A stretch of DNA of 64,000 nt from an uncultured candidate division WWE3 bacterium (GTDB lineage Bacteria; Patescibacteriota; WWE3; UBA101185; UBA10185), in assembly GCA_938004185.1 (NCBI GenBank), contig CALKWN010000065.1, positions 633,943 through 697,942 on the forward strand, written 5' to 3'. The position numbers and the translations under genes are program-made. The number at the start of each line of letters is the position of its first letter. The stretch's first letter is position 1. The notes beneath the pieces were generated by a model that saw nothing but the letters and a program-made list of their open reading frames with translations, was not told the DNA's origin and did not search any database. Shown piece after piece: positions 4,715-25,824 of the stretch.

Positions 4715-6001
4715 TTGGTGGGAAGAACGGAAAAAGGTAAAAGAATTTCTAGCTTAATGGGTTTTGTAGATAACTACATAAAAAATCACGACATCAGAAA
4801 AATTGCTGTAAGCATCATCATTTTCGGGCTATCACTTCTAACTTTCATACATCTAACAATAGCGGCTTTCCAGGAAAGATCTCTGGATTTTTACGCTTTT
4901 CTTACAGGAGCAAAAATTCTTGTAGAAAACAAGCAGGAACTATACAACCCATACGTCCAGTATCAAGTACAGGAAGAGCTCTTCAAAGAGGGCTTCGCAT
5001 ATGAGAGAGCTTTTATGGCTTACATTAACCTCCCTTTAAGCGCTGTTCCATACATACCGTTCCTAATAATACCCCCTCACGTATCTGCAGAGCTGGTACA
5101 TTTGGGCACACTTTTGATATTAATTTACTGCATAACAAGACTCTACAAGTTCCACAAAATAAAACCCCTGTCAGGTGTTACTTTAGTTCTCGCTTTCTTC
5201 TACCCGCTGTATTCTTCAATACATTTGGCTCAAATAGGGACATTGATCCTCCTGGTATTAACAGAAATGTATTTAGCTTACATGAAAAGACAAACCACCA
5301 AACTATCTCTTCTGGCTTCACTACTAATACTAAAAATTCAGTATCTCCCAATAGTGGCTTTTATATATGCCATACACCCGGAAAGAAAGAAATATATCTG
5401 TATTGCGGGTCCTCTAACTCTTATTTTTCTTGCCGCCAATTATTTTATTATGGGGCCGGACCTAGTCGCTCAATACATAGCGCTACTGGAGACTTATCAA
5501 ACAGTGCCGGAAAGGTTTGGGATGGCGTACGAAAAAGGCTTAGATATTTACTCAACTCTGCAATATTTTTTCGATGTGTCGGAAAAGATGAAGTTTGTGT
5601 TACCAATTTTTTTGGGAGCACACTTAGCTATGTTTTCATTCATGCGTTCATACAAATTCGATCAAAAAAGAAAAGATCTACTATTCTACTTCATCATACT
5701 TTACAGTTTAATACTGAGCCCCCACACCATGGCTGCTGATTTTGTTTTCCTCATAATACCTATCATCGGCTTGCTTCATAAAACACGATCAAAAGTTTTT
5801 TACGCCATTACAGTATTCGTTCTTAGCCTTTTCTTTTTTTATACAGCCTATGCAACTCAATGGGCACATACAATAATGATATCCATATACGCACTACTCC
5901 TACTCTCCTCAACACTCAAAAAACCCGGAAAAATAGGGAGGTGGGTACAAAACTCAATGGTGGGTGATCCTGGGCTCGAACCAGGAACCGCTCGTGTATA
6001 A
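4715..6001 (+). CDS. Polytopic membrane protein (possible GT-C/DUF2029-like glycosyltransferase)
   Basis: 428 aa with more than 10 predicted TM helices. The last ~14 codons run into the oppositely oriented tRNA-Ile before a stop is reached. The family call is weak. Confidence 0.35.
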   Translation: MVGRTEKGKRISSLMGFVDNYIKNHDIRKIAVSIIIFGLSLLTFIHLTIAAFQERSLDFYAFLTGAKILVENKQELYNPYVQYQVQEELFKEGFAYERAFMAYINLPLSAVPYIPFLIIPPHVSAELVHLGTLLILIYCITRLYKFHKIKPLSGVTLVLAFFYPLYSSIHLAQIGTLILLVLTEMYLAYMKRQTTKLSLLASLLILKIQYLPIVAFIYAIHPERKKYICIAGPLTLIFLAANYFIMGPDLVAQYIALLETYQTVPERFGMAYEKGLDIYSTLQYFFDVSEKMKFVLPIFLGAHLAMFSFMRSYKFDQKRKDLLFYFIILYSLILSPHTMAADFVFLIIPIIGLLHKTRSKVFYAITVFVLSLFFFYTAYATQWAHTIMISIYALLLLSSTLKKPGKIGRWVQNSMVGDPGLEPGTARV

Positions 6002-6669: not shown

Positions 6670-6897
6670 TTACTCCTTAAAATTTAGTACTTCATTAGCA
6701 CGCTCTACCATTTCCTCAATATCCTTGTCGGTAAAACCGTGAGCTTTTGCCCCGGCCTCTAAAGTGTCAAACGAACTTGCCGCACAACCCACACAATGCA
6801 AACCGTAATCAAGCAAGACCTCGATTATTTCGGGGTGCTTATAAATAATCTCGGCAATATTCGATTCTTTTGTAATGATGTCGTTACTTTTTTTCAT
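6670..6897 (-). CDS. DUF1858-type redox disulfide protein (hybrid-cluster-protein-associated family)
   Basis: 'DYGLHCVGCAASSFDTLEAGAKAHG' CxxC motif typical of DUF1858. Start chosen at the internal MKKSND. Confidence 0.5.
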   Translation of the reverse strand: MKKSNDIITKESNIAEIIYKHPEIIEVLLDYGLHCVGCAASSFDTLEAGAKAHGFTDKDIEEMVERANEVLNFKE

Positions 6898-7258
6898 AAT
6901 CTTCAATTGCTTTTTTAACTGCAATAAGAGCCAGAGTCGCACAACCGATCCTACTCGTAGTGAGATTCAAGTTTAACATACCCAGCAAATCCTCTTTAGA
7001 AAAATTTTTGGCTTCTTCCAAAGTTTTTCCGATTAAATGTTCAAGAAGAACTTCCGAAGATACAACGGTAACAAGACAAGCGCTTCCATCAAAACGGGCG
7101 TCTTTAATAACCCCGTCTTCAACTTTTAACTGAACAACAATGTCGTCACCGCACATAGGGTTTTTCTTAGAAGAAGAAACGTCGGCATCCGAAATAGAAC
7201 CCTTTCTAGCCGGGTTTTTAAAAATATCCATGATTTCTTCTTTGTAAAGGTCGTCCAT
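6884..7258 (-). CDS. sufU: Fe-S cluster assembly scaffold SufU/IscU-like
   Basis: 'FKNPARKGSI...NPMCGDDIVVQLKV...ARFDGSACLV' carries the conserved Cys/Asp ligands of the NifU N-terminal domain. Start codon abuts the sufS stop. Confidence 0.8.
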   Translation of the reverse strand: MDDLYKEEIMDIFKNPARKGSISDADVSSSKKNPMCGDDIVVQLKVEDGVIKDARFDGSACLVTVVSSEVLLEHLIGKTLEEAKNFSKEDLLGMLNLNLTTSRIGCATLALIAVKKAIEDYEKK

Positions 7259-13816: not shown

Positions 13817-13891
13817 TCCCCTGTAGCTCAAGGGTAGAGCGTCCGACTGTTAATCGGCAGGTTGGTGGTTCGAATCCACCCGGGGGAGCCA
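13817..13891 (+). tRNA. tRNA-Asn (anticodon GTT)
   Basis: TCCCCTG-TA-GCTC-AAGGGTA-GAGC-G-TCCGA-CTGTTAA-TCGGC-AGGTT-GGTGG-TTCGAAT-CCACC-CGGGGGA-G-CCA. Confidence 0.85.
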
Positions 13892-15391
13892 ATTAGACCT
13901 TATACGAACCAAATCTCGCGATACTAAAGCCTCAAACTCGGGTACGAACTCAAAACTAGTGATTATTCGCTCTTTTTCCAGGAATGCTTTTGATATGAAA
14001 AAGCGTAAAAACTGCTTTCTTTGTTGCTTATTCATTGCGTCATAAAGGTTTCCGATATGTCTCAAGCCGTTGATTATTTTCTCTATTTCGGAGTCTTTTA
14101 GGTTAGTAGATGGCTTATCCAAGTCTTTTATCTGTGCCTCCACCTGTTTTAGCTCTTCTTTTAGAGGTTTATATCTTTCCTTGAGTCTATCTATGTCCAC
14201 TAACTCGTCACCAGAAAACATCTTGTCCTCAATAACTCTCATTTTCTTGTCTAAAGCGTCTTTTCTGATTTTTAATACCTTAATCTGTGCGGGAACACCC
14301 GAGCCCTGCTCACTTTTAACCTCGTATAAAACACCTCTAAGCTCAGCAAGAGCCTCCTCAGTAAATACTGTTCCATTAAAGAAGTCTGCAATCTTATCAT
14401 CAGCTGTTTCAAGTGGAACATAAGTCCTAGAACAGCTATGGCATCGATAATAATTGCCTTTATCGTGGTATTCTCCAAACATTTGCCTGCCACACTTCAA
14501 GCAATGGGCATATCCTGACAGGAGGGTTACATATTTTCTATCTCTATGAGCACCTTTATTCTTTTTCTCAAACATAAGCAATGATTTGGCATACCAATCA
14601 AAGGATATGATTGGTTCATGTGCCGCTTTTTCATATACTACCCCATCATATAGTAGCCCTCCAGAGTAAAGTATATTTTTTAGGATATTTGTGACTGTGT
14701 TTTTGTAAACTTTTCCACCGGACTCATTCCTAAAACCCCTTTCATGTAACATTTCTGCTATCCTATGGACGGAATAATTACCTGACAACCACAGCTCATA
14801 AGCCATTACAATAAAATGCTTCCTCTCGGGGTCTGGGTATATCGGGGAATCTTTTTTATAGGAGTTTAAGTAACCAATTGGGCTTTTTCCTGGTTTTAAC
14901 CCTCTCTGAGCCAGAGAAAGCATAATCCTCTTTGTTTTCTTGCCTGTCCTTCTAGATTCAAGTTGGTTTACAGCCGCAACAATCACATCTAAAAACTCAC
15001 CTTCATCTGTATCACCATAATACCCATCTAGTGGAATCAGTTTTATTTTTCTTTTTTTAAGAAAAGCTTTAATCGCTAAATGGTCAGAGACATTTCTGGC
15101 TAATCTACTAGAATCCTGTACTAGTACAATGTCTACGGACTCAGCATGCTCATCACAATAATCAAGTAGTTCTTCCATATCAGGTCTGTCTAAATCTCTC
15201 GCACTCTTTCCGGAATCTTCAAATGTTTTGACAATAGAAATGTTATTTTGCTTTACAAAGTTTTGAAAAAGCTCGTCTTGTACATTCAAACTATGCCCAG
15301 TAAGAGCCTGCCGTGTAGTAGAAACTCTTTTATAGCATATAGCTTTTAATATTGTTCCTGTCTTTGGTTTCTGTTCTTCTAATCCGTACAT
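13850..15391 (-). mobile_element. Large serine recombinase (integrase) gene; its 3' end overlaps tRNA-Asn
   Basis: 513 aa. N-terminal resolvase catalytic domain 'ICYKRVSTTRQALTGHSL...IVLVQDSSRLARN', recombinase domain, Cys-rich zinc ribbon 'CLKCGRQ...CHSC', C-terminal coiled coil. The last ~14 codons are encoded by the complement of the tRNA. Confidence 0.85.
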
Positions 15392-15394
15392 TTT

Positions 15395-16297
15395 TTATTT
15401 TCCTATTCTTTCTTTAAGAATCCTACTTATAATACCGTTCAAGTAAGCGGGCTTATCATCTATTTTCTTACCACTAGAAATATCCTCTCGTAGCTCACCA
15501 ATCGCTTTTTCCAACACCCAAAACTGACCATCTCTTATAAGCGAGAGATACCTATCCATACACTTTTCACCTACTTCCAGAGCAATCTGATGCGATACAA
15601 ACTCTTCATGTCTGTTCGGTTTATAACTATCGGTTGAGTTTCTACACTTATACTCCGAGCTTTCTCTCCCCTTATTTCCCCCTTTATAAGACACCGATGT
15701 ATCGGTATTCTTAATCTCATGATAGTGTTCGGTATCATTATTATACCCTCTGTATTTCCTTTTGGCATCAACTAAATCATTGCTTTTTACGACACCGTTA
15801 TCGTGGTTTTTTGACCTCTGTTTTTCTTCATCAACCTCTACATTAACCTCTGATTTAGTAACGCTTTCTATAGGGGCTAGAGCCTCTTCTATAGGGTCAG
15901 TAAAATAATGTTCTATACCGATGTATTTGTCGTCAGGACTCTTAAAATCACCGAAGCGAACCTCGAAGGAACCTATCCTGCCGGAACGAGCTTCGTAGTA
16001 TATATACTTCTTTTTTTTCAGGGATAAGAGTAACTGATTAACATAATTGACTGATACTGAACTCTTTGAGCCTTCTGAACCAAAAACATCATCTCTAAGT
16101 GACTGAAGATGCACGGATGCTATGCCGTATGGGTTACATTGCAACCTTGCATGGCAATAGAGAAGATATTCCTTCCTAGATAAAATACCGTTTTTGTAAT
16201 CACTAGCTATCTTTCGTGGAAAGGGTATCCAATTAGAGGGCATTAAGTTTTTTGTATCCTTATTTTTTTCGTTCATATAGTGACTTATCAAATACAC
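15395..16297 (-). CDS. Hypothetical protein (island cargo; possible winged-helix/replication-associated)
   Basis: 300 aa. Directly upstream of and co-oriented with the recombinase. Low-complexity Lys/Asn-rich middle. No firm motif. Confidence 0.4.
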   Translation of the reverse strand: MYLISHYMNEKNKDTKNLMPSNWIPFPRKIASDYKNGILSRKEYLLYCHARLQCNPYGIASVHLQSLRDDVFGSEGSKSSVSVNYVNQLLLSLKKKKYIYYEARSGRIGSFEVRFGDFKSPDDKYIGIEHYFTDPIEEALAPIESVTKSEVNVEVDEEKQRSKNHDNGVVKSNDLVDAKRKYRGYNNDTEHYHEIKNTDTSVSYKGGNKGRESSEYKCRNSTDSYKPNRHEEFVSHQIALEVGEKCMDRYLSLIRDGQFWVLEKAIGELREDISSGKKIDDKPAYLNGIISRILKERIGK

Positions 16298-16413
16298 CTT
16301 CTTTTTGAAGACTAATCAAAAAGTTAGATAATTGTTTCAAATAAAAAGCCATAGCGTTTTCATCAACTATATGGGGCTTAATATTCAACTGTGTAATTAA
16401 ACTTTTTTTCATT

Positions 16414-16447
16414 TTGAAATAAAAAACCGCCTTCGGGGAAAGGCGGT
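16414..16447 (-). terminator. Rho-independent terminator (minus strand) downstream of the 16590-17552 gene
   Basis: 8-bp stem accgcctt/aaggcggt with loop cgggga, followed on the minus strand by TTTTTTATTT. Confidence 0.5.
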
Positions 16448-16589
16448 TAAATCCTTTGGTGTAAATATGAGAATAGAACTCATACCCCCGAACACCTTTG
16501 AAGTATTGGCTTCTACCGTTAACTTACAACAAAGGTATAGAAGGCAAAATATACATCAGCAGTAAACCCGGATGTCGTATAAATAAGGG

Positions 16590-17552
16590 CTATTTTCTCT
16601 TTTTGTTAGATGGGATGTCTTTTGCAAACCTTGTAAAACGCAACTTGGCTTGAGAAAAGTCCGAAGAGCCGGGACCTACAGAGGAGTACGGCTCGAATGC
16701 ATTTGGATATTTATTGATTATCTCAAATGCTTCTTTGTGGCTCATATTTTTATATTCTGTAAGATAGTAAGAATAGGCGTCTCGTAGAAGGTTTGAGCGT
16801 CTATCATATAAAGTTTTTCTATGCCCGGAAAGTGATTTTTGAAGCTTTTTTAATTCTTCTCGAAACTCTTTCGTCTTTAATATATCGATATTTGTATCGC
16901 CAAATATTTTAAGCTCGATGTATTGGTTTTTCTCACCCATAGAAATATAAATCCTGCGTTTCTTAAGTGCGTCTATTGCTTTATTAAACTTTAGTAAGTC
17001 GGGTGCCAAATCTTCGTCTAAATACTCAGACTCAATATTCTCAGCAGTGCCTAGAGGCATAACACTGTTTATATCGGGATAATCGTCGTATAAGGTGATG
17101 CTTTTAATCCGGCGTGTATACCTAGAATCTAAATGATAATCACGCAACAATGTCTCAAGAAACTCATCAGATAAATAGTTCTTCTCAAACTTTTGCAGTT
17201 TAATGTACTCCTCTTTAATACTCATAAAGTTTGCGGTTGCCGACTTTTCCAAACGGATAATATTTCCAAAAGTGTCAATATCATAAGAACTACCTTCCGG
17301 CATATCCTCATTAAAACCATCTTTATTGTTGAATTCTAAAACATGAGACAAAAGTTTCTTAGAATAGCCTTCCTTATAAAGTTCTTTTAAGAGACTACCT
17401 GCATTTATATTGTGAGCTTTTCTAATTCCATCCACATCTTTCCTAAAATCCTTGTTAATCGTAATTGCAAAAAGCAGCAATACATCCGTGTTACTTTGTA
17501 ACTTCCATTGTACAAATAATTCCCTATCTCTAGGGTTAGCCAATACTTCCAT
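16590..17552 (-). CDS. Hypothetical protein (island cargo)
   Basis: 320 aa with clean codon usage and no recognisable motif. Confidence 0.4.
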   Translation of the reverse strand: MEVLANPRDRELFVQWKLQSNTDVLLLFAITINKDFRKDVDGIRKAHNINAGSLLKELYKEGYSKKLLSHVLEFNNKDGFNEDMPEGSSYDIDTFGNIIRLEKSATANFMSIKEEYIKLQKFEKNYLSDEFLETLLRDYHLDSRYTRRIKSITLYDDYPDINSVMPLGTAENIESEYLDEDLAPDLLKFNKAIDALKKRRIYISMGEKNQYIELKIFGDTNIDILKTKEFREELKKLQKSLSGHRKTLYDRRSNLLRDAYSYYLTEYKNMSHKEAFEIINKYPNAFEPYSSVGPGSSDFSQAKLRFTRFAKDIPSNKKRK

Positions 17553-17873: not shown

Positions 17874-18269
17874 ATGTTCTTATATAAAAACCAAAACGAA
17901 TCGTATAGAAAAGGTGCAAGGGTAGTAGAAGTAGTCTATTGGGTTGCTACATTAATTGTTTTCGCAAGTTTGTTTAACGAAGAATATAGTACTACTGATA
18001 AAGTAGTGGGTGGAATGGGAGCAGTGGTTCTATTTTTGACTATATACATGAGGCACTCGTTGAATAAACTTGAAACTATTTGTATAGAGTACGAAACTAG
18101 ATATAAACACATTGCAGAAAGTTTAAGAAAACTAGATATAAAAAATAAAATCTTAGCTTCAACTAGTAAGGAAGAAAAGGAAAAATATTCAATTGAGATA
18201 AAAACCATCTTGGAAACGATAGACGATAAAAATAATATCGGAGACTGGAGTTTTTATAAACATGCGTAA
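17874..18269 (+). CDS. Small membrane protein, unknown function
   Basis: 131 aa, 2 TM helices. Confidence 0.35.
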   Translation: MFLYKNQNESYRKGARVVEVVYWVATLIVFASLFNEEYSTTDKVVGGMGAVVLFLTIYMRHSLNKLETICIEYETRYKHIAESLRKLDIKNKILASTSKEEKEKYSIEIKTILETIDDKNNIGDWSFYKHA

Positions 18270-18705
18270 TAAACTACTTGTATTAATAGCGTGCGTGTTT
18301 TTGTTGTCAATTGGGGCATGTCTGTACATACAAAATGAATCCGAATCCCAAAAAGAGAATAACAATACTTTAACTAACACAATTGACGAAGAAGAATCAT
18401 ATGTAAATGCGATGAAGAATATTTTTCAAGAATATAGTAAAGGCAGTACAAAAAGTATAACTTCCACAGCTTTGGAGGGGTTGGGAAACGAAAACTCAGG
18501 CATACAATCACGACCGAAAGAATATTACACTAACACTTTTGAAGTGCTGAACATCAAAAATGGTTTGGCAGGTGGAAAAGAGATGAACATAGTATTTGAA
18601 AAGCATCCCAAAGAAATATTTTGGGTTTGGATTTATAAACTTGCAGACGGAACTTACCAAATAAAAGGTTTTCAATTAAATACCCTAACTGACAATAATA
18701 AATAG
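18262..18705 (+). CDS. Putative lipoprotein/secreted protein
   Basis: 147 aa. Signal peptide with a lipobox-like 'LSIGAC'. Confidence 0.4.
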   Translation: MRNKLLVLIACVFLLSIGACLYIQNESESQKENNNTLTNTIDEEESYVNAMKNIFQEYSKGSTKSITSTALEGLGNENSGIQSRPKEYYTNTFEVLNIKNGLAGGKEMNIVFEKHPKEIFWVWIYKLADGTYQIKGFQLNTLTDNNK

Positions 18706-19485
18706 TTGTTTTCACGCAAAGTATTAAATCAATGCTATCATTTTTATATGACAGTCCTTTATGAAGAAGTGCAACTACTAAGCTTTATTTCAAACGAAAA
18801 ACTGTTTCATGCTGTAGAAAAAATAATTACGAAAGCAAAAAAGTCTAAGCGTGAAGACAAGGACATTTATAAAAATGCTATTGACCCGTTTTCTGCACTT
18901 TTTGATGCTTCTTTAGCTGGGATTTCATTGAAAGACTGGTTAGAAGTAGAAAGAACAAGACAAGTTCAAAAATCTTTACAGAACACCATCGGGGAGTTTC
19001 ATGAAGAAATAATTGGCTCAATGCCTGGTTGGGAAAGACTGTTAGTGGGACATATCATTGATGTTGTTAATCCTGAGAAAAAGATTATTGCGGAACTAAA
19101 AAACAAATGGAATACCACTAAAGGTTCCGACAAAGTAGTTTTATACAATAGCTTAAGCATGGAATTAAAATCCGAACAATACAGTGGTTATACTGGGTAC
19201 TATGTAGAAGTAATCCCTGAGAAAGGTAAAACTTACGACAAACCTTTCATGCCTTCTGACCATACTAAACACATACGAAAACCTGAGAATCAAAGAATAC
19301 GAATTATAGATGGAAAAAGCTTCTACGCCTTAGCTTCTGGAGACCCGCTCGCACTACAAAAACTATATAAGATATTGCCCAGAGTAATTGCAGAAATAGA
19401 AAATAGTCCAAGCATTGCAGATTACAGCTCAGAAGAACTGTTTCATATACTGTTTGGTAAGGCATATTCTCCAGACTACAGGTAA
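18706..19485 (+). CDS. Putative Type II restriction endonuclease (PD-(D/E)XK-like) of an R-M pair
   Basis: Immediately upstream of and co-oriented with the C5-MTase. Candidate catalytic block 'GHIIDVVNPEKKIIAELKNK' fits a D...E.K arrangement. TTG start at 18706, or ATG at 18748. Confidence 0.45.
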   Translation: MFSRKVLNQCYHFYMTVLYEEVQLLSFISNEKLFHAVEKIITKAKKSKREDKDIYKNAIDPFSALFDASLAGISLKDWLEVERTRQVQKSLQNTIGEFHEEIIGSMPGWERLLVGHIIDVVNPEKKIIAELKNKWNTTKGSDKVVLYNSLSMELKSEQYSGYTGYYVEVIPEKGKTYDKPFMPSDHTKHIRKPENQRIRIIDGKSFYALASGDPLALQKLYKILPRVIAEIENSPSIADYSSEELFHILFGKAYSPDYR

Positions 19486-19495
19486 CCCTTGCATA

Positions 19496-20791
19496 ATGCA
19501 TTGGTTACTGATAACATATTTAAATATGCCTAATGACCTCTTTACTGTTACAGAAACAGCAGAAAAAATCGGTGTTTCAGCAGATACAATAAGACGCTGG
19601 GAAAAAATGGGTCTGATTAAATCAACACGCTCTGAGCAGAACTACAGACTTTTCAGTTTGTCCGAAGTTGAGAGAGTAAAACAGAAACAAGAAGGCACTC
19701 ACAGTCCAATTGGATTTAAAATCCTAAAGAACAATAAAAAGCACCCCTTTACAACAATCGAACTTTTCACAGGAGCCGGTGGAACTGCATTAGGTTTAGA
19801 AAATGCAGGATTCACAAATACTCTAATGGTCGAGATTGATAAGAACGCAGTCCAAACACTTAGAGTCAACAGACCGAAGTGGAATGTTATTCAAGATGAC
19901 ATAAAAAATGTATCGTTTATTGGAAAAGAAGTAGATGTGGTGGAGGGTGGTTTCCCCTGTCAATCTTTCAGCTTTGCTGGGAAAAAAATGGGATTTGAAG
20001 ACACACGAGGTACCTTGTTTTTTGAGTTTGCAAGATGTGTTAAAGAAACACGCCCGAAAGTAGCGGTTGGAGAGAATGTTAGAGGATTACTAAAACACGA
20101 TGACGGAAAAACTTTAAAAGTTATGGTCGATGTACTATCTGAACTCGGATACAAAGTGGCGTATAAAATATTAAGGGCACAATACCTGGATGTACCACAG
20201 AAAAGGGAAAGATTGATTATAATCGGTGTAAGAAATGACCTTGATATACCTATCCTGTTTCCTAAAGAAAAGGACTATTTTATTTCCATACAAGAAGCTT
20301 TAAAGGATGTTCCGGCATCGGAGGGTCAAAAATATCCTGAAAAGAAACGAAAGGTATTAGAACTAGTGCCTCCTGGGGGATACTGGAGAGACCTGCCTCT
20401 GGATATACAAAAAGACTACATGGGAGCCAGTTTTTATATGGGTGGGGGTAAAACAGGAATGGCTAGAAGACTGTCCTGGAATGAACCAAGTTTAACATTA
20501 ACCTGTGCCCCTGCTCAAAAACAAACCGAAAGGTGTCACCCAGAGGAAACAAGACCACTTTCCTATCGCGAATATGCCAGAATACAGACTTTTCCTGATG
20601 AATGGGATTTTGCTGGCTCATTAGCTTCAAAATACAAACAAATAGGAAACGCTGTTCCCGTAAATCTCGGTTATCACATAGGTAAAGCACTAATAGCAAT
20701 GCTTGAAAAAGACCCGAACCGAGAAGACTTTGTTGAGGTTAAGGAACCAGCTACAAGTAAAAACTTAAACATGCCGCTTTTCCCTAATTAA
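19496..20791 (+). CDS. DNA (cytosine-5)-methyltransferase with N-terminal MerR-type HTH
   Basis: Motif I 'FTGAGGTALGLENAGF', motif IV 'GGFPCQSFSFAGK', motif VI 'ENVRGLL'. N-terminal 'LFTVTETAEKIGVSADTIRRWEKMGLI' is a MerR-like HTH. Start at 19496 or 19526. Confidence 0.85.
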   Translation: MHWLLITYLNMPNDLFTVTETAEKIGVSADTIRRWEKMGLIKSTRSEQNYRLFSLSEVERVKQKQEGTHSPIGFKILKNNKKHPFTTIELFTGAGGTALGLENAGFTNTLMVEIDKNAVQTLRVNRPKWNVIQDDIKNVSFIGKEVDVVEGGFPCQSFSFAGKKMGFEDTRGTLFFEFARCVKETRPKVAVGENVRGLLKHDDGKTLKVMVDVLSELGYKVAYKILRAQYLDVPQKRERLIIIGVRNDLDIPILFPKEKDYFISIQEALKDVPASEGQKYPEKKRKVLELVPPGGYWRDLPLDIQKDYMGASFYMGGGKTGMARRLSWNEPSLTLTCAPAQKQTERCHPEETRPLSYREYARIQTFPDEWDFAGSLASKYKQIGNAVPVNLGYHIGKALIAMLEKDPNREDFVEVKEPATSKNLNMPLFPN

Positions 20792-20820: not shown

Positions 20821-21432
20821 ATGAAAACACCATATATTTTTGACTATAAAAAAGCAACACAAGCAATAAACTACTTAGCTAATAAATATCCGTCAGGAAC
20901 AGTAGGCAAAATGAAGGTTATAAAACTGATATGGGCTGCCGATAGATATCATTTGAGAAAATATGGTAGACCAATAATTGGCGACGACTATGTTGCCATG
21001 CAATATGGTCCTGTCGGGTCATCAACCAAAGACATAGCCGGTAAAAATAGCTTCCTTGATGAAAAAGAAAAAAGATACGCGAACTATTATTTAGATGGAC
21101 CGATTGGTAATAATATTAAGTCACTAAGAAAGCCCGATTTGGATGTGTTTTCGGAAACAGACTTAGAAGCTTTAGACTTTTCTTATACAAACTTTGGTAA
21201 TAAAACACCGACTGAACTAGTAGACATTTCTCATCAATATCCGGAATGGAAAAAGTTTAAAGTCTATTTCGACTCAAAGGCTACAACTCGAGAACCTATG
21301 TCATACATGGACTTTTTTAAAGACCCGGAAACAACTCAAAAAAACGATGTTTTCAAAGAAGAAGATGAACTTGTAAAACTTAGTGAATCAATCTTTACCG
21401 AAAATAATACTTCTGCCCAGCAATGGACTTAA
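20821..21432 (+). CDS. Panacea-domain (DUF4065, SocA-like) antitoxin-type protein
   Basis: 'MKVIKLIWAADRYHLRKYGRPIIGDDYVAMQYGPVGSSTKDI' fits the DUF4065/Panacea core pattern (K-L-hK-L-hY-AD-HL-YG-P-G-Y-A-GPV). Confidence 0.7.
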   Translation: MKTPYIFDYKKATQAINYLANKYPSGTVGKMKVIKLIWAADRYHLRKYGRPIIGDDYVAMQYGPVGSSTKDIAGKNSFLDEKEKRYANYYLDGPIGNNIKSLRKPDLDVFSETDLEALDFSYTNFGNKTPTELVDISHQYPEWKKFKVYFDSKATTREPMSYMDFFKDPETTQKNDVFKEEDELVKLSESIFTENNTSAQQWT

Positions 21433-21436
21433 GTTG

Positions 21437-21892
21437 ATGGGTACAAGAGGTTTTACTGTGAAAATCCCCAAACAGATAGCAATAACCGTATCTCTCGAAC
21501 AAGGTACCGTGTATCTCTTTTCTGAAGAAAGTTTCGATACAACTACACCTCATTTCTTCATTATCTTAAACAAAAACCCTGTCGAAGACCCCTTTTTAAT
21601 AATGACCTGTGCTACTTCTCAAGTTGAAAAAAGGTATGAGTGGGTCAAGAAAAATGGCTTGGATTTAGAAACTATCGTTCCTATAGATGAAAGTAGCTAT
21701 AAGTTTCTGAACAGAGAAACTGTTGTCGATTGCAACCAATTACTTCAAAGGACAAAGGAAGTCTTAATGGACAAGTACGACAGTGGAAACCTAAAACTCA
21801 AAGGTAAAGTAACTCAAAAAGACCTTAATCGGATTATTAATGGGGTAAGAAAAAGTAAACTTGTAAGCAAGTCCCACAAAAACCTACTTTAA
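21437..21892 (+). CDS. Unknown protein translationally coupled to the Panacea-domain gene (candidate toxin partner)
   Basis: ATG lies 4 nt after the upstream stop. 151 aa with no recognisable domain. Confidence 0.35.
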   Translation: MGTRGFTVKIPKQIAITVSLEQGTVYLFSEESFDTTTPHFFIILNKNPVEDPFLIMTCATSQVEKRYEWVKKNGLDLETIVPIDESSYKFLNRETVVDCNQLLQRTKEVLMDKYDSGNLKLKGKVTQKDLNRIINGVRKSKLVSKSHKNLL

Positions 21893-22629: not shown

Positions 22630-22779
22630 ATGTTCTTAGCACCCGAGGATTACAACGTGATGCCGGCGGAGATGCGTGAAGGAAACTCGACATGCCCTCA
22701 GGGTTCGCAATGCATGTGCCAATGTCCCTGCAATTGTCGAAACACTACTGAGGTAAACCCTTCCACACAGGTTCGGTAA
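22630..22779 (+). CDS. Cys-rich RiPP precursor-like peptide (SCIFF/ranthipeptide-like, six Cys)
   Basis: GGAGG RBS 8 nt upstream. 49 aa: MFLAPEDYNVMPAEMREGNSTCPQGSQCMCQCPCNCRNTTEVNPSTQVR. About 100 bp upstream of the rSAM-SPASM gene. Confidence 0.55.
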   Translation: MFLAPEDYNVMPAEMREGNSTCPQGSQCMCQCPCNCRNTTEVNPSTQVR

Positions 22780-22882: not shown

Positions 22883-24217
22883 ATGAACTTAGCATTATCT
22901 TCCTATACACACCTGCTAAAAGTAGACGAAGCAACGTATGCTCTTTTAAACGCTTTGTGGCTTCGTGTAGTCTTTCTGCAGGAACCGTACGTGTCCGTTA
23001 TGCAAGAATCTTTGAAACACGGGCAATTACCACAAGCAACACCCAACGATATTGAAGAGAAAACGTGGGAACTCTTCAAAGATTTACTTAAAAAAGAAAT
23101 GTTTCTGGACCCGGTTGAGGACATTATTCACCTACAAAAAGTGCGTGAAGAAATGGAACAAGAACACATTTCCATAATGTATTTGATACTTTCAAATAAT
23201 TGCAACTTGCGCTGCGAATATTGCTATCTACATGAATTGCTTACACCAAAAGTCCAAAATGCACCGATGTATATGAGCGTTGAAACAATGAACAAAGCAA
23301 TTGATTATTTTGCTGACTTGGTTAACGGAGTCATTGCTCACCCCCAAATTGTACTTTATGGAGGCGAACCTACGCTTAATCCAAACATGGAATACCTAAT
23401 AAAACTGGTCTATGAAAAAATCCTGGGGGTCAATATATCTCTCGTAACAAATGGGACACTCATAACAAAGGACTTAGCAGAAATTCTTGCTAAATATCAC
23501 ATAAATGTAGGTGTCTCCATTGACGGGCCACAGAAAATACACGATACAAATCGCAAGTTCCACAATGGGCGCGGCTCTTTTGAAGAAGCCCTTAAGGGTT
23601 ACAAAACCCTGTTGGAAAAAGGCGCTCTGGCGGGGATATCCTGCACAATTACAATGCAAAACGCACCGACTCTGGTGGATACAATGCACTGGCTATTGGA
23701 TGAACAGGGAGTCCTAGGCATAGATTTCAATTTGTTAATCGATGAAGAATCCTCGGAATACCCGGAAATAGCCACCAAAGGACTCATGGAATGCTATGAG
23801 CTGGCAAAACAACGCGGTTTGCCACTGGAACGTGTGCTAAGAAGAGTACAACCATTCTCTGAGGGACGATTGAACTTACACGACTGCGGCGGCACAGGAA
23901 ACCAAATCGTAATAACCACAGATGGTAGAGTGGGAATTTGTCAGGGGTTCCTAAATTCGGGCGATTTTTTCTTTCCCTTGGAAGAAATTAAGGACCCGAA
24001 TACACACCCACTTTGGGCTGAATGGCGGAAACGCTCACCAATTAACATTGATGGGTGCCATTCTTGTCCTGCCTTTGGTATTTGCGGTGGCGGATGTTTC
24101 TACGGTCCTTACACCCGACACGGCTCCATAATGAAACTAGATCCGGTACATTGTACGCACGTGCTAGCAACGCTGGATGTTATTCTCAAAGATTTATGGA
24201 AAAAGCAGAGAGGATAA
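22883..24217 (+). CDS. Radical SAM enzyme with C-terminal SPASM domain (RiPP maturase-like)
   Basis: rSAM cluster motif 'CNLRCEYCY' (CxxxCxxC). SPASM signature 'CHSCPAFGICGGGC' (Cx2Cx5Cx3C), plus extra Cys 'HDCGGTGN...GICQGF'. ~90 aa N-terminal extension could be a precursor-recognition (RRE) domain. Confidence 0.85.
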   Translation: MNLALSSYTHLLKVDEATYALLNALWLRVVFLQEPYVSVMQESLKHGQLPQATPNDIEEKTWELFKDLLKKEMFLDPVEDIIHLQKVREEMEQEHISIMYLILSNNCNLRCEYCYLHELLTPKVQNAPMYMSVETMNKAIDYFADLVNGVIAHPQIVLYGGEPTLNPNMEYLIKLVYEKILGVNISLVTNGTLITKDLAEILAKYHINVGVSIDGPQKIHDTNRKFHNGRGSFEEALKGYKTLLEKGALAGISCTITMQNAPTLVDTMHWLLDEQGVLGIDFNLLIDEESSEYPEIATKGLMECYELAKQRGLPLERVLRRVQPFSEGRLNLHDCGGTGNQIVITTDGRVGICQGFLNSGDFFFPLEEIKDPNTHPLWAEWRKRSPINIDGCHSCPAFGICGGGCFYGPYTRHGSIMKLDPVHCTHVLATLDVILKDLWKKQRG

Positions 24218-25257: not shown

Positions 25258-25824
25258 ATGACCGTTTTGTTTGGTTCCGTTAAGTTCTATAGCGAAAAGG
25301 GGTTTGGCTTTATCAGCCTTGATAAACCCCAAGATTTATTTTTCCATATCAAAAACTACTCAAAACCCGTTGCAACTGAGCGTGGTGTAGTTTTTGAACG
25401 CGTATATAAAAACTCTGTTCGTTACCCTCAGCCGGGGGATTCCGTAGCATTTGAAATGACTATGGGGAACAGGGGTTTTGTCGCAAACCCTTGGTGTTAT
25501 ACCGAGGATTACCATAAAGCTTTGGAAATCTTCGAAAAATGGCCGCAACCACAACGGTACAGAGTCGTTACGGTCCACGATCAGATCCACATAAGTGGGT
25601 TTGTTGGCGAACCTCACGTAACGTGGGGCGGTGAAAAAGGAGGTACGTTTGAGGAACTCTGTAGAACGTATCCCCGGGATCGTTATGACAAATTACAGTA
25701 TTTTGGTCATGACGACTTCAATGCAACACACTACATCCAGCAATTAAAGGATGGAAAGTGGGTTAACATCGAAGACCCGAGACCGTATGTGGAAGATCGG
25801 TATAGATCCAGACGTCGCTGGTAA
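25258..25824 (+). CDS. Protein with N-terminal cold-shock-like (CSD/OB) domain
   Basis: 'GSVKFYSEKGFGFIS' resembles the CspA RNP1-like region. The C-terminal ~120 aa are of unknown function. Confidence 0.5.
   Translation: MTVLFGSVKFYSEKGFGFISLDKPQDLFFHIKNYSKPVATERGVVFERVYKNSVRYPQPGDSVAFEMTMGNRGFVANPWCYTEDYHKALEIFEKWPQPQRYRVVTVHDQIHISGFVGEPHVTWGGEKGGTFEELCRTYPRDRYDKLQYFGHDDFNATHYIQQLKDGKWVNIEDPRPYVEDRYRSRRRW

Follow-up and report, generated by a model that had tools for sequence, protein, structure and literature searches.

Eco47II and Sau96I, which recognise GGNCC, are homologous restriction endonucleases sharing 33% identity (PMC3045609), and homologues of Eco47II are routinely assigned the same specificity (PMC10305163). 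Their family, PF09553, was previously placed in the PD-(D/E)XK fold by theoretical assignment (PMC2441816, PMC3045609). Self-control is known for a number of C5-cytosine methyltransferases (MTases): M.SsoII/Ecl18kI, M.EcoRII, M.MspI, M.ScrFIA and M1.LlaJI repress their own genes via the N-terminal region, and two molecules of M.SsoII bind a 15-bp palindrome (PMC3978073, PMC6100179, PMC12707154). In the C-protein systems PvuII, AhdI and Esp1396I, a helix-turn-helix (HTH) protein sits on a palindromic box at the restriction-modification (R-M) promoter.

In this study, a 64-kb stretch of DNA (hereafter the window, the whole stretch that was analysed) was found to carry an intact Type II R-M pair, neither component of which is new. 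We consider it likely that the two genes make up an intact Eco47II/Sau96I-family module of Type IIP, probably directed at GGNCC, in which the MTase represses its own promoter by means of a fused HTH acting at a palindrome. Like Eco47II and Sau96I, the endonuclease falls in PF09553, shares their predicted PD-(D/E)XK catalytic motif and has a C5 MTase of some 420 aa as its partner, but it is a distant member of the family, and its specificity is something we infer. Enzymes, fusion and regulatory principle have each been described already, so that the system is ordinary and raises no new question, while the conserved control site in the gap between the endonuclease and MTase genes seems to be undescribed so far.

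The restriction and modification genes

The features of the two genes, all on the forward (+) strand, are as follows.

18748..19485, +, R, restriction endonuclease gene, 245 aa, Eco47II/Sau96I family, PD-(D/E)XK fold (mechanical ORF from TTG 18706)
19060-19062, +, codon of predicted catalytic residue D105 of R
19093-19095, +, codon of predicted catalytic residue E116 of R
19099-19101, +, codon of predicted catalytic residue K118 of R
19526..20791, +, M, C5-cytosine DNA methyltransferase gene, 421 aa, with fused N-terminal HTH (PF00145, TIGR00675, homologue alignment)
19535..19690, +, MerR/excisionase-type winged HTH, M residues 4-55 (PF00376, PF13411, PF12728)
19691-19750, +, coil linker of about 20 residues, M residues 56-75 (AF2 model)
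19958-19960, +, codon of the catalytic Cys145 of M

The longest mechanical ORFs, 18706-19485 and 19415-20791, have the same orientation and both begin at TTG codons. The original prediction, made from these ORFs, was right about two co-oriented genes, whereas its 259-aa frame and TTG starts were not retained: the start of R was placed at ATG 18748 by homologue alignments together with the public gene call, and that of M at ATG 19526 by homologue alignments. Since R ends at 19485 and M starts at 19526, the two genes neither overlap nor abut, contrary to what had been proposed, and are separated by a non-coding spacer of 40 bp (19486-19525), which contains the predicted regulatory element. In the public annotation, M begins at ATG 19496 (431 aa), within the palindrome described below; this start is at odds with the homologue alignments and was not adopted.

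R matches Pfam PF09553 (RE_Eco47II) with 187.6 bits against a cut-off of 25.9, positions 1-200 of the 202 in the profile being covered by residues 25-231 of the 259-aa ORF, and its relatives bear the NCBI name "Eco47II family restriction endonuclease". The residues D105, E116 and K118 (245-aa numbering) were invariant in an alignment of 27 sequences of relatives. A sequence search of R against solved structures gave no match, and a fold search was used instead, in which the predicted structure matched EcoO109I, AvaII, Bse634I and NgoMIV. EcoO109I (PDB 1wtd; RG^GNCCY) additionally reads the flanking R and Y bases, and its sequence identity with R is only 12%, so it falls in a different Pfam family. 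R is thus predicted to be a PD-(D/E)XK endonuclease cognate to M, with the D...E-x-K block as its predicted catalytic motif; both points had been anticipated by the original prediction, while its suggestion of a novel endonuclease family did not hold.

M matches PF00145 (E 5.5e-83, 279.5 bits) and TIGR00675 (266.2 bits) in profile searches, and aligns with M.HhaI and M.HaeIII with E values of 4.5e-42 and 7e-36, respectively. The motifs FTGAGG (81-86), PCQ (144-146), ENV (183-185), QKRER (225-229) and GNAVP (374-378), given in 421-aa numbering, make up the C5 MTase set I, IV, VI, VIII and X, with a variable region between motifs VIII and IX. By these profiles and motifs M is a complete C5-cytosine DNA methyltransferase, and the earlier call, made from motifs I, IV and VI, was sound. 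The reading of the two genes as a Type II R-M pair was likewise confirmed, with R followed in tandem by the HTH-bearing M in 67 of the 80 related loci.

The module lies in a low-GC region, adjoining genes for a serine recombinase and for tRNA-Asn, and a search over 26 kb gave no att-like direct repeat of the end of the tRNA-Asn gene. The host genome is probably patescibacterial and, judged by the nearest relatives of the R-M pair, Saccharibacteria-like; a phage collection yielded no relatives. Relatives on plasmids (Psychrobacter, Vibrio and Bacteroides) show other gene orders or a different N-terminal region, and the palindrome is absent from those searched, namely the Psychrobacter and Vibrio plasmids; the plasmid relatives are therefore uninformative on the operator.

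The helix-turn-helix fused to the methyltransferase

The MerR-like HTH that had been predicted at the N-terminus of M was recovered by PF00376 (E 1.6e-10, 41.1 bits, cut-off 28.2) and PF13411 (E 2.7e-10, 40.6 bits, cut-off 21.6), the Pfam names matched being MerR, MerR_1 and HTH_17, and by a match to the MerR structure PDB 4ua1 (E 7.7e-5); the Pfam search returned no HTH_3 match for this region. In the AF2 model, the domain consists of a strand (5-7), two helices (8-15 and 19-27), two wing strands (33-35 and 41-44) and a further helix (45-55), followed by coil up to residue 75 and by the MTase domain from residue 76. The model contains neither a long coiled-coil dimerisation helix nor an effector-binding domain, and the NCBIfam MerR-type matches of M span just the first ~50 profile positions and lie far under their cut-offs.

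Though the fusion had been regarded as uncommon, 119 of the 120 best M homologues, mostly from Patescibacteria, carry both the MerR and the DNA_methylase domain, and the PADLOC MTase_II profile extends over the HTH region. A search with the HTH only, against 1.8 billion representatives, gave 1480 clusters, many with tandem copies, and the domain is, on the evidence of its sequence relatives, a promiscuous module. No separate C gene adjoins R or M; the flanking ORFs at 17874-18269 and 18262-18705 gave no significant match to an HTH family, the only one being HTH_27 below threshold (E 0.006).

Like M.SsoII/M.Ecl18kI, M.EcoRII, M.MspI, M.ScrFIA and M1.LlaJI, M has a small N-terminal DNA-binding domain joined by a flexible linker, and like the SsoII class it lacks a separate C protein and has a palindrome at its predicted promoter, with autorepression as the expected outcome. 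However, by its Pfam matches and winged model, the HTH of M is not homologous to the regulatory domain of M.SsoII, being of the winged MerR/excisionase type, whereas the SsoII domain was modelled on the Xre-type 434 repressor (PMC3978073). Gene order differs too, with M following R in tandem instead of the divergent arrangement of SsoII/Ecl18kI; the palindrome measures 26-27 bp instead of 15 bp; the predicted site covers the −35 element and the spacer, whereas that of SsoII occupies +7 to +21; and, unlike in the SsoII class, there is no sign of co-regulation of R. A different HTH fold and a tandem arrangement of the genes would here have led to the same regulatory solution, and the locus contributes a well-conserved predicted operator and promoter to the few examples of self-regulating MTases. 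Compared with PvuII, AhdI and Esp1396I, a separate C gene is missing, the HTH is of another fold class and the predicted site governs M rather than a C-R operon, but by analogy it may share the purpose of the C proteins, that of setting the M:R balance. A literature search on MerR-type HTHs in C5 MTases and on the regulation of Sau96I and Eco47II, with the cloning papers of the 1990s outside its scope, yielded Xre-type examples only.

The palindrome and the predicted promoters

The regulatory features, of which the promoter of R was read from the sequence, are as follows.

18733..18741, +, candidate extended −10 of the R promoter, TGcTATCAT, 6 nt before the R start
19482..19508, no strand assigned, 27-bp imperfect palindrome GTAACCCTTGCAT-A-ATGCATTGGTTAC, predicted operator of the M HTH, with 11 of 13 arm positions complementary
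19489..19494, +, TTGCAT, −35-like hexamer of the predicted M promoter, within the left palindrome arm
19512..19517, +, TAACAT, −10-like hexamer, separated from the −35 by 17 bp and from the M start codon by 8 nt

The palindrome occurs once in the 64-kb window, and its left arm includes the stop codon of R (TAA, 19483-19485). It is kept, as a 27-bp or a 26-bp variant, in 64 of the 67 tandem loci, beginning in most loci at or just past the R stop codon. In two loci with other gene orders it is located just 5′ of M and is missing at the 3′ end of R: in L036, M and R diverge, and in L020, M comes after another gene and converges with R. The blocks TAACC and TTGC are conserved across loci whose R proteins share only ~45-55% identity. 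The outer operator positions vary symmetrically in 29/29 unique sequences, while the inner variable positions are frequently non-complementary (only 5/24 complementary at two even-class positions), which fits a protein-binding site better than a hairpin. The residue at wing position 40 of the HTH is Y or H in 34/34 loci with an odd-class operator and in 1/30 with an even-class one, a correlation confounded by phylogeny because the classes largely correspond to two clades.

At the −35 position, TTGCAT or TTGCCT was observed in 58/64 loci, and at the −10 position a perfect TATAAT was observed in 26/64 and a match of at least 5/6 in 45/64. The distance between the two elements is mostly 17 bp (16-18) and is the same in the 26-bp and 27-bp variants. 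In the window, the −10 hexamer matches the consensus at 4/6 positions and the −35 hexamer matches TTGACA at 3/6, in a lineage whose promoters are uncharacterised. Because of this 3/6 match, the M promoter was not listed by a generic promoter scan, and it was called from its conservation across loci. The M mRNA would be near-leaderless.

Upstream of R, nothing is conserved across all loci compared; the HTH site had been expected upstream of 18706, and the conserved site was found at 19482-19508 instead. In the three closest loci (the window, L001 and L002), the sequence TGnTAT(C/T)AT precedes the start codon of R by 6 nt. The candidate promoter at 18733..18741, which has no recognisable −35, would yield a leaderless or near-leaderless R mRNA. 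A search of the whole window against Rfam returned tRNAs and tmRNA only, with no match at the R-M spacer.

Proposed autoregulation, alternative readings and probable target site

Because the conserved palindrome overlies a promoter-like element immediately 5′ of M, the fused HTH most likely substitutes for a C protein in autoregulation, in agreement with the original prediction, and M is best read as one more of the known "regulatory MTases" exemplified by SsoII, EcoRII and MspI, with a MerR-type HTH. The binding of the HTH to the operator, the repressive sign and the stoichiometry are what we infer from sequence. The HTH would recognise the 27-bp palindrome, which covers the −35 and the spacer of the predicted M promoter. 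With an MTase molecule on each of the two half-sites, the promoter would become blocked when the enzyme has accumulated sufficiently, giving negative autoregulation of M as in the known regulatory MTases. R would be transcribed from its own promoter, without a copy of the operator, and would cut the sites that M would protect by C5 methylation. The proposed circuit does not account for a delay of R upon entry of the module into a new cell.

That the palindrome is merely an intrinsic terminator or RNA hairpin ending the R transcript, with the HTH serving some other role, appears improbable. The palindrome does fold well as RNA (−14.6 kcal/mol and z −3.0 in the window, z −4.9 to −6.0 in relatives), it lies at or just after the R stop in most loci, and a T-rich stretch comes after it in many relatives. 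However, the element goes with M and not with the 3′ end of R in L036 and L020, TAACC and TTGC are maintained as primary sequence despite the divergence of R, variable stem positions are often non-complementary, and the −35/−10 spacing is kept though the length of the palindrome changes; a dual role as operator and RNA hairpin is possible. We also regard it as unlikely that the HTH activates the M promoter, or R, in the manner of MerR, although the domain is of MerR type and the palindrome lies between −35 and −10, as for MerR activator sites. MerR activators bind between these elements and remodel promoter spacers of 19-20 bp, whereas the spacer of the M promoter is mostly 17 bp. MerR transcription factors have a homologous helix-turn-helix-wing module, but in M this module is fused to an enzyme and its model is devoid of the long dimerisation helix and the effector domain. 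Further points against activation are that no operator copy was found near the R start, and that no positive autoregulation occurs among the regulatory MTases covered in PMC3978073 and PMC12707154.

Autorepression of M, the preferred reading, can be carried further, though we think the extension quite unlikely: MTases with a MerR/excisionase-type HTH and a 26/27-bp operator would form a large uncharacterised subclass, dominant in Patescibacteria for this R-M family, in which the operator-bound MTase also blocks or truncates R transcripts. In many loci, the window included, the operator encloses the stop codon of R, and bound MTase might therefore act on R transcripts in this way. If true, the output of R would be coupled to MTase occupancy, a logic undescribed for tandem R-M systems.

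The family to which R belongs and its EcoO109I-like fold make GGNCC or a close variant the most likely target. GGNCC has an observed/expected ratio of 0.83 in the 64-kb window, similar to many other palindromes, and, since it is not depleted, the genome gives no independent support for this specificity. The lack of avoidance would also suit an inactive endonuclease beside an MTase acting as a solitary epigenetic regulator, but this is very improbable, as R is full length and keeps all invariant family residues, the identical locus is present in several independent assemblies, and an MTase adjoins R in the window and in 79/80 related loci, the contig of the one exception, L044, ending ~90 bp after R. 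A true R-M pair with another specificity, perhaps one nested within or close to GGNCC such as GGWCC or RGGNCCY, is a possible though somewhat doubtful alternative. It would agree with the nearest solved folds, EcoO109I (RGGNCCY) and AvaII (GGWCC), and with the slightly stronger depletion of GGWCC than of GGSCC in the window (observed/expected 0.69 vs 1.00), whereas Pfam RE_Eco47II is defined on GGNCC enzymes, and MTase relatives ~59-60% identical over residues 73-405 adjoin endonucleases of the TdeIII family, which also targets GGNCC. An R-M system of the GGNCC type would be a concrete barrier against the introduction of DNA into Saccharibacteria-like organisms, and the likely target site indicates which methylation to pre-install.

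Eco47II-type endonuclease and HTH-fused methyltransferase

The two co-oriented ORFs that had been predicted as a type II restriction-modification (R-M) pair are present and their R-M interpretation holds, with an RE_Eco47II endonuclease followed by a complete C5 methyltransferase (MTase); the limits first proposed were those of the longest mechanical ORFs from TTG codons, and the starts are corrected as follows:

18748-19485, + strand, endonuclease gene (R), start ATG 18748, 245 aa
19526-20791, + strand, C5 MTase gene (M), start ATG 19526, 421 aa

Both starts are based on homologue alignments, and the public gene call concurs for R. With these starts the two genes are 40 bp apart (19486-19525) and do not overlap. 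The public call for M (431 aa, ATG 19496) begins within the palindrome of the R-M gap and is at odds with the homologues; its ATG at 19496-19498, 30 nt 5' of the homologue-backed start, is probably a mis-annotated start codon.

R gave a full-length match to Pfam RE_Eco47II (E 2.6e-55, 187.6 bits against a cut-off of 25.9 bits) and also matched a PADLOC Type II REase profile (7.9e-58); NCBI labels its relatives "Eco47II family restriction endonuclease", so that the proposal of a possibly novel REase family is wrong. The catalytic block picked out in the original prediction is the true active-site motif, with D105, E116 and K118 (245-aa numbering) invariant across 27 aligned sequences sharing 46-74% identity with the R of the window. 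Additional PD-(D/E)XK enzymes ranked lower among the fold matches. Sau96I and Eco47II have previously been placed among the PD-(D/E)XK enzymes (PMC2441816, PMC3045609), and a GGNCC specificity may thus reasonably be inferred. Counts of GGNCC in the window (86 observed vs ~103 expected) showed no depletion and were uninformative as to specificity.

M was likewise borne out as a complete C5-cytosine MTase (PF00145, E 5.5e-83; TIGR00675, 266 bits), similar to M.HhaI (E 4.5e-42) and M.HaeIII (E 7e-36) and carrying motifs I, IV (PCQ, Cys145), VI (ENV), VIII and X, preceded by the predicted N-terminal MerR-type HTH (PF00376, 1.6e-10; PF13411, 2.7e-10). M was modelled with AlphaFold (pLDDT 79.5). From the N-terminus, the model has a strand at 5-7, helices at 8-15 and 19-27, a β-hairpin wing formed by 33-35 and 41-44, a helix at 45-55 and coil up to 75, and then the MTase fold; as modelled, the N-terminal domain is the winged HTH known from MerR or excisionase proteins. 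M has neither the long dimerisation helix nor the effector domain of MerR regulators and is thus not one of them in the full sense.

The fusion had been supposed uncommon but is the rule: the MerR + DNA_methylase architecture is shared by 119 of the 120 best MTase homologues (66-89% identity), the majority of them Patescibacteria sequences. When one genome per species was scanned for R, 167 relatives came up, and 80 loci were retained, 67 of them with R and then the HTH-MTase in tandem. The R-M relatives nearest to this pair are Saccharibacteria MAGs. In more distant members of the MTase family the N-terminal HTH occurs with other gene arrangements as well, as in Capnocytophaga, Sulfurospirillaceae and Tissierellales, while it is missing in five loci, three of them titled cyanobacteria. 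Such HTH-fused MTases are already in reference sets, since the PADLOC MTase_II profile alignment begins at residue 6 of M. Overall, the locus belongs with the ordinary Eco47II/Sau96I-type systems, its MTase being probably self-regulating; both claims that had made it of interest having failed, what remains is the conserved predicted operator and promoter of M, of which no description was found in the literature searched.

Palindrome and promoter-like elements of the methyltransferase gene

The elements of the window are:

18733-18741, + strand, candidate extended −10 element of R, TGcTATCAT, 6 nt 5' of the start codon, conserved among the three closest loci
19482-19508, R-M gap, palindrome GTAACCCTTGCAT-A-ATGCATTGGTTAC, single copy in 64 kb
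19489-19494, + strand, −35-like TTGCAT
19512-19517, + strand, −10-like TAACAT

The predicted operator and promoter are clearly conserved. The palindrome is kept in 64 of the 67 tandem loci, being 27 bp long in 34 and 26 bp in 30 (consensus sequences aTAACCcTTGCATaAtGCAanGGTTAt and aTAACCtTTGCcTAgGCAaTGGTTAT), and no conserved element common to all loci was found 5' of R. The left arm contains TTGCAT or TTGCCT, and the −10 position is a perfect TATAAT in 26/64 loci and matches it at 5/6 or better in 45/64, with a −35/−10 spacer that is mostly 17 bp and the same in both length classes. In the window, 8 nt separate the −10 from the M start codon, which would make the mRNA almost leaderless; this distance is 2-10 nt in nineteen other loci, and the remaining loci have a 13-38 nt leader, with the lone exception of one locus (L058, 251 nt). 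The spacing class tracks residue 40 of the HTH wing, which is Y/H in 34/34 loci of the 27-bp form vs 1/30 of the 26-bp form, a correlation confounded by phylogeny. Many 26-bp-operator loci (among them L047, at 4730-4762, L062, L068 and L080) have another strong hairpin, ATGATAGA…TCTATCAT, with a T run behind it, in the stretch from the −10 to the M start codon. This hairpin, which the window lacks, is reminiscent of a terminator or attenuator within the M leader.

Proposed self-repression and its alternatives

The best-supported reading is that M is a regulatory MTase repressing its own promoter: its N-terminal HTH would bind the palindrome over the −35 and spacer, and the promoter would be repressed once the MTase had accumulated. 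As RNA, the palindrome would form a hairpin (z −3.0 to −6.0), which raises the alternative of a terminator of R; gene order and substitution pattern argue for an operator. At one related locus M is divergent from R (L036) and at another it lies behind a different gene, convergent with R (L020); at both, the palindrome is directly 5' of M and missing at the 3' end of R. Moreover, the outer positions vary symmetrically in 29/29 unique sequences (TAACC/GGTTA to GTACC/GGTAC or GAACC/GGTTC), whereas the weakly conserved inner positions are often non-complementary (5/24 complementary at two positions), a pattern more in keeping with a dimeric protein site than with a stem under selection. Activation in the MerR style is unlikely, because the spacer is 17 bp and the dimerisation and effector parts are missing from M.

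Self-repression of MTases is established for M.SsoII/Ecl18kI, M.EcoRII, M.MspI, M.ScrFIA and M1.LlaJI, and two molecules of M.SsoII bind a 15-bp palindrome (PMC3978073, PMC6100179, PMC12707154). In contrast to SsoII/Ecl18kI, with divergent genes, a regulatory domain modelled on an Xre-type (434) repressor and a site downstream of the transcription start, the genes here are in tandem (R then M), the HTH is of MerR type, and the site is longer (26-27 bp vs 15 bp in SsoII) and overlaps the −35. R appears, from its sequence, to have its own extended −10 element, near which no operator copy was found, and the proposed circuit therefore leaves the delay of restriction on entering a new cell unexplained.

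At L020 (~6770-6950, − strand), the translation 5' of the HTH-MTase reads like the C-terminal part of a Vsr-like (very-short-patch repair) ORF, and the TAA stop of that ORF likewise supplies the palindrome's first bases.

Genomic surroundings

The R-M pair lies in a low-GC stretch (0.32-0.38 across 16-22 kb vs ~0.40), downstream of the first two features below:

13817-13891, + strand, tRNA-Asn
13850-15391, − strand, large serine recombinase ORF, 3' end overlapped by tRNA-Asn
15395-16297 and 16590-17552, − strand, two ORFs without family match
20821-21432, + strand, SocA/Panacea antitoxin-domain protein (PF13274, 2e-22)
21437-21892, + strand, 151-aa ORF, 4 nt after the Panacea gene, without match in Pfam, NCBIfam or PADLOC
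22630-22779, + strand, 49-aa Cys-rich peptide (…CPQGSQCMCQCPCNCRN…), directly 5' of the maturase
22883-24217, + strand, radical SAM/SPASM peptide maturase
25258-25824, + strand, 188-aa protein with N-terminal cold-shock domain

The tRNA-Asn, the recombinase and the two unmatched ORFs (13817-17552), together with the drop in GC, resemble an integrated island with the R-M pair on it; no att repeat was found. Several assemblies hold the same locus, on contigs of up to 842 kb. The 3' side is occupied by the Panacea-domain antitoxin gene, which with the 151-aa ORF probably makes up a toxin-antitoxin pair of PanA type, the toxin being unclassified, right after the R-M genes, and then by the radical-SAM peptide cluster. 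The Cys-rich peptide and the maturase, whose best NCBIfam matches (FibroRumin maturase, 9e-58; PapB ranthipeptide maturase, 1e-44) are both below cut-offs, look like a RiPP cluster, here in a genome that is probably from Patescibacteria. The 188-aa protein gave weak matches far below cut-offs (retron Se72 effector model, 4e-6; PADLOC CSD, 3e-7). At another related locus, on a Vibrio plasmid (L082; NZ_CP080241.1, 85-3115), one C5 MTase gene is located between two unrelated endonuclease genes, of the TdeIII and Eco47II families, and this single methylase may serve two isospecific nucleases.
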